Sequence record: MN022785.1
DNA length: 64,000 nucleotides
Source of the DNA: Escherichia phage VEc20
Direction: 5' to 3' (one strand)
The position numbers were made by a program, and so were the translations under genes. The notes below the pieces were generated by a model. The model was given only the letters and a program-made list of their open reading frames with translations. It was not told the origin of the DNA and did no database searches. Shown in pieces: positions 38,627-39,621 of this stretch (its first letter is position 1; every line of letters starts with the position of its first letter).

Positions 38627-38671
38627 TTAGTACCTTATATAAATTATAATACATTTTATGAAGCTAAATAA

Positions 38672-39019
38672 TCAATACGGTTTAGCATCAAATTTTCTTT
38701 CGATTTCAGGAGTGAAATATAATTCTTTACCGCGTTTAGAAAAGCGACCAATAATATGATAATTATTCTCATCAAACGTGATATTACCAATATCCATAGC
38801 TTTCAACCAAATATCGATATTTCTATCCAGCTTTATGTCAAAATTCCAATACGGAGAACTATTACCGAAAATACTGCAAGCGGATTCAGTGAAACAACTG
38901 CTATAAATCTTGTCTTTAGGAACTACTAATTGATAGACACCTTTAATAAACTGAGGACCTTGCCATTTTGGCTGTTTTGCGTCTTTTTCTAATAGAATAG
39001 GATAATAATTAAAGTTCAT
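38672..39019 (-). CDS. hypothetical protein encoded by a cassette inserted between frd and td
   Basis: 115 aa from ATG 39019 (MNFNYYPILLEK...); no recognisable motif. Confidence 0.5.
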   Translation of the reverse strand: MNFNYYPILLEKDAKQPKWQGPQFIKGVYQLVVPKDKIYSSCFTESACSIFGNSSPYWNFDIKLDRNIDIWLKAMDIGNITFDENNYHIIGRFSKRGKELYFTPEIERKFDAKPY

Positions 39020-39039
39020 ATTTTCCGCCACGCGTTATT

Positions 39040-39621
39040 TCATTTATACACTGATTCCGTAAGGGTTGTTACTTCATCTATTTTATACCAGTGGGTTTCA
39101 ACCATTTCACGCTTGCTTATATCATCAAGAAAACTTGCATCTAATTGAACCGTTGAATTAACACGATGCCTTTTAACGATGCGAGAAACAACTACTTCAT
39201 CTGCATAAGGTAATGCAGCATATAACAGAGAAGGTCCGCCAATTACACTAACATTAGAATTCTGGTCAAGCATAGTCTCGAATGGCGCGTTATGACTTGA
39301 AACTTGAATTTCACCACCAGAAATGTAAGTTATATACTGTTCCCAAGTAATATAGAAATGTGCTAAATCGCCGTCTTTAGTTACAGGATAATCACGCGCA
39401 AGGTCACACACCACAATATGGCTACGTCCAGGAAGTAATGTAGATAATGACTGGAACGTTTTAGCACCCATAATCATAATTGTACCTTCGGTACGAGTTT
39501 TAAAATTCTGGAGGTCCTTTTTAACTCGTCCCCATGGTAAACCATCACCTAAACCGAATGCTAATTCATTAAAGCCTTCGACGGTTTTAGTTGGAGAATA
39601 AGCGAATACCAATTTAATCAT
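39040..39621 (-). CDS. frd: dihydrofolate reductase
   Basis: 193-aa [13 protein letters not shown]...GDGLPW; its stop overlaps a vestigial ATGAAATAA. Confidence 0.9.

Follow-up and report, generated by a model that had tools for sequence, protein, structure and literature searches.

The frd-td boundary of Escherichia phage VEc20 carries a conserved 115-aa gene flanked by a short direct repeat

We analysed a stretch of 64,000 nt from Escherichia phage VEc20 (MN022785.1), hereafter called the window, at the boundary between the genes for dihydrofolate reductase (frd) and thymidylate synthase (td). Both genes lie on the minus strand and are separated by a 115-aa ORF, here called gene A (Table 1). 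The frd gene is 95% identical in nucleotide sequence to frd of T4 and is annotated as such in matching records, and td is 99.6% identical to td of T2 and 95.9% to that of T4. The frd TGA (39042-39040) overlaps the minicistron ATG AAA TAA, a two-codon dead end (Met-Lys-stop); this overlap, the 115-aa ORF behind it and a td gene starting at 38626 had all been predicted and were all confirmed on the sequence. An alternative GTG start at 39031 would extend the gene A product to 119 aa, but the ATG at 39019 is favoured since homologues open with MNFNYY or M(S/T)ANY. About 30 nt of the spacer between gene A and td are missing in the alleles of SF, PHB12, JoYop and L036.

Table 1. Features of the frd-td region in the window.
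Feature	Position	Strand	Remarks
frd (dihydrofolate reductase), 193 aa	39621..39040	-	ends GTG TAT AAA TGA (VYK + TGA); from ORF list
Left repeat copy TAAATGAAATAA	39046-39035	-	holds minicistron ATG AAA TAA (39043-39035)
Untranslated leader AATAACGCGTGGCGGAAAAT, 20 nt	39039-39020	-	between frd stop and 115-aa ORF
Shine-Dalgarno-like GGCGGA of gene A	39029-39024	-	inside leader
Gene A, 115 aa (PHROG 1928; RB32ORF229c in GenBank)	39019..38672	-	ATG 39019, stop 38674-38672
A-td spacer, 45 nt	38671-38627	-	from alignment and junction survey
Candidate MotA-type middle promoter GCTTCA-N12-TAATTT	38664-38641	-	weak candidate; in spacer, preceded by TTTA
Shine-Dalgarno AAGG of td	38636-38633	-	in A-td spacer
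Right repeat copy TAAATGAAACAA	38629-38618	-	includes true td start codon (38626-38624)
td exon 1, thymidylate synthase N-terminal 183 aa (MKQYQDL...)	38626..38078	-	from ORF list
I-TevI ORF in td intron	~37946-37209	-	after exon 1; I-TevI annotated in matching records

In T4, the stop codon of frd and the start codon of td reportedly overlap as ATGA. The window has the same frd end (VYK followed by TGA) and the same td start (ATGAAACAATACC) as T4, and its left junction keeps the ATGA. Unlike in T4, however, the overlapping ATG opens the Met-Lys-stop minicistron, and the true td gene begins 417 nt downstream with a Shine-Dalgarno sequence of its own. The left repeat copy sits at the position that the td start occupies in T4 and RB69. 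Alignment to T4 bore out the original prediction that this phage lacks the 115-aa ORF, its junction being GTATATAAATGAAACAATACC without any ORF.

A repeat search returned the 12-nt direct repeat TAAATGAAAYAA at both junctions, with a spacing of 417 nt and 92% identity (11 of 12 positions); the 9-bp repeat that had been predicted at both junctions is present on exact alignment, inside this longer repeat. The window contains four copies of TAAATGAAAYAA against 0.18 expected from shuffled sequences, a roughly 20-fold excess, and the other two copies are antisense to coding sequence. Aligned to the td start, the left copy matches at 11 of 14 positions in the window and at 12 of 14 in ZCEC14, PHB12, L033 and L034, where the genomic background for such a 14-mer is 2e-4 per position for 11 or more matches and 2e-5 for 12. 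The surplus similarity is modest because the Lys codon and the stop codon of frd itself supply six of the matches (AAATGA); beyond these six, 5 of the 8 remaining bases match, for which we estimate a probability of about 5-10% by chance for the window.

The left junction is variable among sister alleles, which read ACGAAATAG, ATGAAATAC or ATGAAATAG. In RB14, JoYop and ZCEC14, frd reads on through the leader stretch, which adds a C-terminal extension (VYKNEIxxGGKYEF-stop) that overlaps the start of the ORF. These extended alleles have two extra A's in the run TATAAA(AA)TG, and these 2 nt are the main difference between the window and ZCEC14. The 3' part of the leader resembles the frd tails VYGEKREF-stop in L012 and VYGEKR-stop in L011, and we infer that the leader derives by frameshift from an frd gene whose C-terminus was once longer. 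The upstream ATG (39043) is in frame with gene A in the window. We rejected a reading of ATG AAA TAA as what is left of an original, now truncated start of gene A, since homologues begin at the position of ATG 39019 and a 1-nt variation in leader length (UFV06, slur04, IMGVR6 and IMGVR7) breaks the frame in several phages. A tblastn tally of 179 extended frd alleles was inflated by alignments that crossed the in-frame TGA and was not used. Searches of metagenome and viral contigs for a donor lineage with the frd tail VYGGKYEF-stop abutting gene A gave 0 matches, and a broader search for gene A start patterns returned known junction types only.

We compared the region with other phage records. 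Matches were found in 536 records, 352 of which covered the region fully, including T2, T6, RB14, RB27 and AR1. The ORF is located at the same position in about 350 Tequatrovirus records, and about two thirds of the records for this genus carry it, RB32 among them. With the gene A protein as query, tblastn identified 362 records at 90% or higher amino acid identity and another 192 at less than 60% identity in phages of Klebsiella, Enterobacter, Citrobacter and others, all located between frd and td wherever inspected. Three alleles occur at the boundary: the PHROG 1928 gene, an unrelated 68-aa gene (PHROG 9550; about 134 records) and an empty junction, as in T4, RB69, HY03, G2133, FL18 and e11/2. 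The empty junction of RB69, a member of another genus (Mosigvirus), is the same as that of T4, and since the short junction sequence also matches records of still other genera at places annotated as frd and td, empty junctions apparently occur there too. Empty alleles are found on at least three flank haplotypes, two of which are nearest to phages that carry gene A.

Jiaodavirus, Kanagawavirus and several T4-like contigs from metagenomes also have members of the family at the frd-td boundary, and this conserved position was found in T2, T6, RB14, SF, PHB12, Mineola, IME523 and L011-L015. The gene content of the slot differs among these: frd-A-td in Mineola, frd-A-B-td in L012, L014, L015 and IME523, and frd-A-B-C-td in L011 and L013. 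B is a paralog of A, and A, B and the Klebsiella and Enterobacter homologues all match PHROG 1928, while C is 78% identical to the 68-aa gene of Tequatrovirus. No paralog of A was found elsewhere in the window with the family HMM. The use of T4 as the ancestral reference is contradicted by the presence of the family in other genera and in about two thirds of the Tequatrovirus records. The textbook phage represents the minority state at this locus, so that calling the gene an "insertion relative to T4" is of little help in judging ancestry, and since T2, T6 and most close relatives of T4 carry gene A, its presence is an ordinary difference in gene content from T4.

The 115-aa ORF is a real, strongly conserved gene that is already annotated in public records and is not new. 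The GenBank record for RB14 names it RB32ORF229c and notes that it is "flanked by 9 bp repeat". The gene in the window is the same as this ORF and as PHROG 1928 in position and repeat, with 100% amino acid identity to the T2, T6 and RB14 proteins, and differs from it in nothing. The discovery value is small: annotations of the ORF exist for hundreds of T-even-type genomes, and the repeat has been noted for RB14. No function is assigned to RB32ORF229c in the GenBank records or in the literature searched, and searches for the ORF name, for ORFs between frd and td and for screens of T-even accessory genes yielded no functional data.

At the protein level, the HMM for PHROG 1928 matched gene A with an E-value of 8.4e-36, aligning residues 4-111 with positions 2-125 of the 126 in the profile. 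The original description of a protein with no recognisable motif is therefore correct for Pfam, NCBIfam and PADLOC but overlooks that the ORF belongs to PHROG 1928. The protein had no match to a Pfam or NCBIfam family at E<=1, and neither A, B nor C matched these databases; a search of 24 family members against Pfam gave six unrelated families with one member each (best E 0.042). PADLOC likewise gave no match for A, B or C, which has little bearing on a role in counter-defence since its models represent defence and not anti-defence proteins. A profile search against PDB sequences returned a best E-value of only about 1.

Gene A is under very strong purifying selection. Its amino acid sequence is unchanged across T2, T6, RB14 and VEc20 despite a synonymous divergence of about 20% (0 nonsynonymous differences between the window and the other three at dS values of 0.18-0.22). 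The dN/dS ratio was estimated to 0.01 against JoYop and 0.044 against SF, with a range of 0-0.12 across comparisons, and amino acid identities in the family range from 100% down to 30% across hundreds of phages. A first AF2 model built from four sequences was poor (pLDDT 61.5); the model was remade from 24 sequences and then yielded a small beta-barrel with a pLDDT of 87.5. The weak matches in a fold search were OB domains and no nuclease was returned, while a search of BFVD retrieved uncharacterised T4-like proteins only. If the OB fold is defined as a closed beta-barrel of five strands, with a helix linking strands 3 and 4, that is significantly similar in structure to known OB folds, the predicted fold of gene A is weakly like an OB barrel, and the likeness to nucleic-acid-binding OB domains (RPA, SSB, Teb1, the RecO N-domain, S1) is likewise weak.

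We tentatively suggest, with low confidence, that gene A encodes a non-catalytic protein that binds nucleic acid or a protein partner and is co-expressed with dihydrofolate reductase and thymidylate synthase. Less probable still is that A and B are OB-like, non-catalytic regulators or adaptors of these two enzymes in the dNTP-synthesising complex, or counter-defence factors that protect the nucleotide pool. If true, such roles would explain why the genes are found only between frd and td and are translationally coupled to both, and why their proteins are more tightly constrained than thymidylate synthase, yet dispensable in T4.

We also examined the region for expression signals. Gene A would be transcribed together with frd and td as a pre-replicative message from the minus strand and translated from its own ATG (39019) with GGCGGA as the Shine-Dalgarno sequence; the upstream ATG AAA TAA would be functionless, a decayed copy of the td start. 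As td would have lost its ATGA coupling to frd here, it probably uses its own Shine-Dalgarno sequence (AAGG) and perhaps also a MotA-type promoter. In MotA-dependent middle promoters of T4, the MotA box, (a/t)(a/t)(a/t)TGCTT(t/c)A, is centred near -30, and 11-13 bp separate it from the TAnnnT -10 element downstream. The candidate site in the A-td spacer deviates in having AGCTT instead of TGCTT, and a canonical TATAAT lies at a spacing of 10. The window has 15 sites of the form GCTTYA-N11-13-TANNNT, 12 of them on the minus strand, where 6.6 would be expected in all. A scan of the spacers for sigma-70 promoters was at chance level (4 sites versus 4.0 expected), and no terminator-like hairpins were found in them. 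An Rfam scan of the region returned nothing, and the RNA fold z-score of +1.0 indicated no excess of structure.

We compared the window with the Mosigvirus SF. The synonymous divergence was lower for gene A (pS 0.47, dS 0.74) than for td (pS 0.68, dS 1.78), while frd was saturated; the nucleotide identities were 88.8%, 80.6% and 74.3% for A, td and frd, respectively. SF is RB69-like in both flanks (96%), yet carries gene A, and the mismatches between SF and RB69 in td decrease from 13% at nt 1-45 to 2.5% at nt 136-540, indicative of a conversion tract that extends into td. PHB12 is a recombinant with a crossover within gene A. Gene A has been exchanged between Tequatrovirus and Mosigvirus by recombination. 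The RB69-like flanks of SF document a gain by this route, and a synonymous divergence of A between the genera that is less than half that of td demonstrates lateral gain at least sometimes.

Between frd and td, T4-type phages have a variable slot that accommodates small accessory genes, here a PHROG 1928 gene, and we consider it likely on balance that the left junction is a scar of import. As to how the gene arrived, our confidence is about evenly poised on an old recombination event that brought it into an ATGA junction until then empty, which we favour over an ancestral gene lost from T4. A segment consisting of an frd tail, gene A and td from another T4-like phage would have been placed in the empty junction by one illegitimate crossover just after the td start and one homologous crossover inside td. 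The scar would then consist of the decayed td start and a relic of the foreign frd C-terminal tail (...GGKYEF-stop). Ordinary homologous recombination between co-infecting phages may later have spread the alleles, and the flanking repeat would also permit a precise loss that restores the T4-type junction. The original idea of a precise insertion at the td start is upheld in so far as the left junction resembles a copy of the td start and coincides with the place where the td genes of T4 and RB69 begin. A self-contained cassette with a clean target-site duplication is not upheld, as the two copies differ and vary among alleles and the left stretch is translated in RB14, JoYop and ZCEC14.

The junctions of T4 and RB69 are also exactly what a deletion between the repeats would yield, so that they are compatible with both a gain and a loss. 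This bears on the possibility, which we regard as somewhat unlikely, that gene A is the ancestral resident of the slot and that T4 and RB69 lost it when replication slippage or illegitimate recombination removed the DNA between short direct repeats. In that case the left "td start" would be no duplication but a piece of a longer frd C-terminus frameshifted by 2 nt (K-N-E-I = AAA AAT GAA ATA), the likeness of which to a td start is fortuitous and supplied the microhomology. T4 deletions at short direct repeats are well documented, and here a deletion between the TAAATGAAA copies in a window-type allele would give the exact T4 junction and one between the TAAATGAA copies in SF the exact RB69 junction. 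The location of the family at the frd-td boundary of several genera and metagenomic lineages, in tight coupling with both genes, is also expected for an ancestral resident, as is an frd tail that overlaps A in those lineages and is retained in RB14, JoYop and ZCEC14. This wide syntenic distribution equally fits vertical presence with repeated loss, and the empty alleles, with their three or more flank haplotypes of which some are closest to phages with gene A, fit recurrent deletion as well as recombination. A loss from T4 would, however, require coincidence to explain the extra 18 nt in the frd tail of Tequatrovirus relative to L011 and L012, as well as the match to the td start at 11-12 of 14 positions, at exactly the td-start position of T4 and with the upstream ATG in frame. 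As deletion from the extended (5-A) alleles does not give the T4 junction, the truncated sub-allele in particular would need to be the source of T4. Ancestral residence is also contradicted by the lateral gain that the low synonymous divergence of gene A indicates, and by the same empty junction in Mosigvirus and, apparently, other genera.

Two other explanations have far less in their favour. That the ORF is an autonomous mobile element, either a homing endonuclease or a transposable cassette, with a target-site duplication of 9-12 bp at the td start is highly improbable, even though the gene is polymorphic for presence at a fixed site in two genera, has direct repeats at both ends and resides in T-even phages, which are rich in free-standing endonuclease genes (PMC2993671). 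Several records from the BASEL collection label the ORF a "putative homing endonuclease", but we found no domain or fold to support the label: the ORF lacks matches in Pfam, NCBIfam and PADLOC, has no similarity to recombinases and encodes only 115 aa modelled as a small beta-barrel with weak matches to OB domains. No transposase was found at the locus, nor any motif of the homing endonuclease classes (GIY-YIG, HNH, LAGLIDADG, His-Cys, PD-(D/E)XK, EDxHD). We rejected a transposable element because the repeat is imperfect (11 of 12) and varies between alleles, the boundaries have no terminal inverted repeats and there is no transposase or integrase; the homologues in other genera are, unlike a homing gene, members of translationally coupled arrays with a tandem paralog. 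That the repeat and the ORF arose by chance in AT-rich sequence and the ORF is no gene has next to no probability. It is true that ATGAAA is a very common gene start in the genome, that AAATGAAA was found 27 times and that the left 12-mer recurs at two unrelated antisense sites, but the 12-mer is 20-fold overrepresented relative to shuffles and its copies bracket exactly the segment that is absent from T4. The non-gene interpretation is refuted by the conservation of the ORF at 100%-30% identity in hundreds of phages and the dN/dS values of 0-0.12, to which the confident fold from 24 homologues can be added.

The seg and mob homing genes show a patchy presence at fixed sites and co-conversion of the flanks upon transfer (PMC2993671, PMC2790892). 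Gene A is similar in its patchy occurrence at a fixed intergenic site in close relatives and in the co-conversion of its flanks, but differs in that it lacks the domain and the fold of a nuclease and does not reach half the size that is usual for such genes. Since it is located in a conserved multi-gene array of distant relatives, its transfer is explained by general recombination. In the hyperplastic regions of T4-type phages, ORFs are said to be shuffled by means of promoter-early stem-loop (PeSL) cassettes. As in that system, small ORFs at the frd-td boundary are swapped between conserved genes with short repeats as recombination joints. The repeats here are, however, start/stop overlap motifs (TAAATGAA...) instead of a promoter and a stem-loop, and the frd-td spacers have no terminator-like hairpin and promoter-like sites only at the expected number.

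Gene A is an unusually constrained protein in a thymidylate-synthesis operon and a reasonable target for knockout and interaction experiments in T2 or T6. The locus illustrates cleanly, in nature, the gain, replacement and loss of translationally coupled phage genes at stop/start overlaps, and the scars can still be read in the frd tail, which is frameshifted, and in the Met-Lys minicistron, which is a dead end. It is also conceivable, with low probability, that conserved stop/start overlaps such as TAAATGAA serve as recombination joints at which coupled genes may be exchanged while translation is kept intact.

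The 115-aa gene between frd (dihydrofolate reductase) and td (thymidylate synthase), here called A, is the hypothetical gene already known as RB32ORF229c (PHROG 1928), at its customary position, and as such is real, ordinary and on record. A megablast search with the 901-bp region matched 536 phage records, 352 of which cover its full length at 93-97% identity, those of T2, T6, RB14, RB27, AR1 and PST among them. Using tblastn, the ORF was found at >=90% amino acid identity in 362 records and at <60% in 192 further records from Klebsiella, Enterobacter, Citrobacter, Raoultella and other phages. 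The RB14 RefSeq record (L025, NC_012638.1, 884-1231) lists RB32ORF229c as a hypothetical protein with the note 'flanked by 9 bp repeat', the T6 annotation uses the same name, and the gene is unannotated in the T2 record AY310907.2. Some BASEL-collection records (e.g. MZ501052.1, MZ501089.1) carry the label 'putative homing endonuclease' and one public record 'putative glucose-1-phosphate adenylyltransferase'; these annotations conflict, and 'hypothetical protein' alone is supported.

The original prediction, of an frd stop overlapping an ATG that opens a 2-codon dead end, followed by a 115-aa ORF and a separate td start, was borne out in every detail. The predicted direct repeat at both junctions was recovered by a repeat search as a 12-nt sequence, 11/12 identical, with copies 417 nt apart. 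The T4 junction reads GTATATAAATGAAACAATACC with nothing in between. Aligning the junction against T4 and other phages, the check proposed with the prediction, showed that T4 (Tequatrovirus) and RB69 (Mosigvirus) are without the ORF, and in the seven-way alignment the segment absent from both is exactly what the repeat brackets. An Rfam scan of window positions 36000-40500 at the gathering threshold gave zero families, not even a group I intron despite the split td gene. The left-junction 12-mer TAAATGAAATAA has two further copies in the window, and because each of these runs antisense to a long coding ORF its excess over shuffled sequences is partly an effect of codons and composition.

Features of the frd-A-td locus and related sites in the window
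Feature	Position	Strand	Remark
frd.1	40119-39877		
81-aa ORF (RB32ORF231c in T6 annotation)	39866-39621	minus	between frd.1 and frd; stop overlaps frd start (TAATG)
frd	39621-39040	minus	ends GTG TAT AAA TGA
Junction repeat, left	39046-39035	minus	12 nt, TAAATGAAAYAA
Dead-end ATG AAA TAA	39043-39035	minus	ATG overlapped by frd TGA
Leader	between ATG AAA TAA and ATG of A	minus	20 nt
Candidate SD of A	39029-39024		GGCGGA, four nt before ATG
A	ATG 39019, stop 38674-38672	minus	115-aa ORF
Frame of MLNRIDYLAS*	38656-38790		
A-td spacer	between A stop and td start	minus	45 nt
SD of td	38636-38633		AAGG, six nt before ATG
Junction repeat, right	38629-38618	minus	12 nt, TAAATGAAAYAA
td start	38626	minus	begins ATGAAACAATACC...
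I-TevI ORF, in the intron that interrupts td	~37946-37209		
Further copy of TAAATGAAATAA	15356-15367	minus	
Further copy of TAAATGAAATAA	60307-60318	plus	

Searches of Pfam, NCBIfam and PADLOC with A gave zero families, in line with the predicted lack of a recognisable motif; that claim fails in so far as A matches PHROG 1928. A profile search against PDB sequences gave no match, and no paralogue was found elsewhere in the 64-kb window. When 1.8 billion cluster representatives were searched exhaustively with an HMM, only 22 relatives reached E <=0.001, nearly all of 95-116 aa. With no Pfam, NCBIfam or PADLOC match, the homing endonuclease label is without support. The likeness of A to free-standing homing genes, and equally to PeSL cassettes, is confined to a patchy distribution between conserved genes, and A lacks the defining features of either. 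Our best guess, a doubtful one, is that A is a small protein with a binding role, expressed together with the two flanking enzymes.

We compared A and its flanks between the window and other phages, and A proves to be a real gene under strong constraint. The dN between the window and the A-bearing Mosigvirus SF increases from A through td exon 1 to frd, and Q16, W19, G27 and the C-terminal G-R/H/Q-F-x-K-x-G hairpin are invariant in A.

Divergence of A and its flanking genes between the window and other phages
Gene	Compared with	pS	dN	dS	dN/dS	Nucleotide identity
A	T2, T6, RB14		0	0.18-0.22	0	
A	JoYop		0.004	0.41	0.01	
A	SF	0.47	0.033	0.74	0.044	88.8%
td exon 1	SF	0.68	0.095	1.78		80.6%
frd	SF	0.76	0.38	saturated		74.3%
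A	L011, L012 (distant T4-like relatives)		0.25-0.26	>2 (near saturation)	~0.1	

Against every more distant phage compared, A has diverged faster than td, the amino acid identities being 63% versus 86% for L011 and 45% versus 84% for IME523. Since its synonymous divergence from SF is nevertheless lower than that of the flanks, A is younger than its flanks in both SF and the window. Both SF flanks are 96% identical to RB69; mismatches in td fall from 13% (nt 1-45) to 7.8% (nt 46-135) and 2.5% (nt 136-540), while the last 98 nt of frd contain just two differences, both <=12 nt from the stop; this is a conversion tract with its centre at the frd-td boundary. In PHB12, another Mosigvirus, frd and leader are of Tequatrovirus type, A is of SF type and td is that of a Mosigvirus, which implies a crossover inside A. 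The gene is thus passed between phages.

We also surveyed the left junction in sixteen further leader-carrying A loci besides the window and recognised three sub-types. Sub-type (a), TATAAATGAAATAAC(G/A)CGTGGC(G/A)GAAAATATG, occurs in the window, T2, T6, EP01, IMGVR5, IMGVR8, PHB12, L033, L034 and L038; sub-type (b), in UFV06, slur04, IMGVR6, L035, L037 and IMGVR7/L032, lacks one A before the ATG of A; in both, frd ends VYK*. Sub-type (c), in ZCEC14, RB14, JoYop and L036, has two extra A's (TATAAAAATGAAATA...; ACG in JoYop), and frd continues as VYKNEI-xx-GGKYEF* with an 11-nt overlap with the start of A. SF has no leader, the ATG of A lying within an ATGA overlap with frd. In its 3' half (GGCGGAAAATATGAA) the leader is similar to the frd tails of L012 (GGTGAAAAACGTGAA; VYGEKREF*) and L011 (VYGEKR*). 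The 5' half in the window, AAATGAAATAACGC, matches the td start AAATGAAACAATAC at 11/14 positions, and AAATGAAATAACAC of ZCEC14, PHB12, L033 and L034 matches at 12/14 (genomic background 2e-4 and 2e-5 per position, respectively). Six of the matching positions are the frd Lys codon and stop in the truncated alleles; we estimate the probability of the remaining similarity arising by chance at roughly 5-10% in the window, compared with about 2-3% in the best sister allele. In the window the upstream ATG lies 24 nt ahead of A in the same reading frame, and a T4-type ...ATGAAACAATAC fused to AT GGC GGA AAA T ATG... would match ZCEC14 at 17/19 positions. We favour reading the dead-end ATG AAA TAA and leader as a recombination scar and a frameshifted frd tail.

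We favour, at about even odds, an origin of the Tequatrovirus A allele by recombination into an empty ATGA junction from another T4-like phage. A donor segment of the form frd-tail-A-(spacer)-td would have entered by one illegitimate crossover just past the td start and one homologous crossover inside td. Such a single import would explain the ~18 nt by which the tail exceeds other frd tails, the td-start similarity, its position and the reading-frame relations, although no donor was found: metagenome and viral contigs gave zero hits for an frd tail VYGGKYEF* abutting A, and a broader A-start pattern retrieved known junction types only. It is less probable that A and the extended frd tail are ancestral and that T4 and RB69 lost A by deletion between 8-9-nt repeats. 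Such a deletion would yield exactly the observed empty junctions, so that the direction assumed in the predicted precise insertion at the td start does not follow; however, it gives a T4-type junction from the truncated sub-allele only and leaves the td-like stretch to coincidence. Import and deletion probably both operate: the SF/RB69 pair shows conversion at this boundary, and precise loss is readily achieved through the repeat.

Since td no longer overlaps frd, the T4-style coupling of the two genes would be gone in the window, with A probably translated from the GGCGGA and td from the AAGG motif. About 30 nt of the A-td spacer is present in most Tequatrovirus A alleles and lacking in SF, PHB12, JoYop and L036. 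This stretch holds TTTAGCTTCA-N12-TAATTT, a near-consensus MotA-type middle promoter candidate in which one box position deviates and whose class of pattern occurs more often in the window than expected (15 versus 6.6). A generic sigma-70 scan of the region was at chance level, and no terminator, Rfam family or excess RNA structure was found there.

Directly beside the boundary is a second presence/absence polymorphism: by tblastn, the 81-aa ORF upstream of frd is found in T2, T6, HY03, PM108 and most other loci and not in the T4 (L001), RB69 (L010) and G2133 (L019) loci. An ATG matching the start of B, a paralogue of A, survives in the window and opens MLNRIDYLAS*, a very short reading frame and possibly the stump of a lost B gene. 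The 195-aa protein P0021, from a 100-kb NCBI-sourced contig, joins an unrelated N-terminal ~150 aa to a C-terminal ~40 aa that it shares, without a difference, with A of the Klebsiella-phage type, and is probably a recombinant or mis-called gene.

The Tequatrovirus boundary has three alleles: A; C, an unrelated 68-aa gene (PHROG 9550) with ATGA-type overlaps at both ends, in ~134 records at >=90% amino acid identity; and empty, in T4, HY03, G2133, FL18 and e11/2. The empty junction of RB69 is the same as that of T4, and A is present in the Mosigvirus phages SF and PHB12. Neighbour-joining trees built on the 3' end of frd and the 5' end of td do not separate the alleles but intermix them, with the empty allele on at least three flank haplotypes. 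The C allele (PM108, L002, 1964-2040; also L022-L024) goes with a td 5' haplotype of its own (ATGAAACAATACCAATTTTTAATTAAAGATATCCTGG...), nearer in places to RB69 than to T4, which suggests that C, too, was brought in on a conversion tract from a different lineage. Tightly overlapping arrays fill the boundary in more distant relatives: frd-A-B-C-td in L011 and L013, frd-A-B-td in L012, L014, L015 and Enterobacter phage IME523, and frd-A-td in Klebsiella phage Mineola. Both A and B match PHROG 1928, and the C of L011 has 78% identity to the 68-aa gene of Tequatrovirus. The A/B overlap is always 17 nt in IME523 (L004, 1498-2176) and L011-L015, the ATG of B lying within ...DAKPY/...DS-PY of A. To the recorded gene the analysis adds very strong constraint on its protein, evidence of exchange between genera, the interpretation of ATG AAA TAA and the leader as a recombination scar and frameshifted frd tail, and a picture of three alleles and arrays, in which the Tequatrovirus alleles are drawn from a broader and more ancient group of genes, always located between frd and td.
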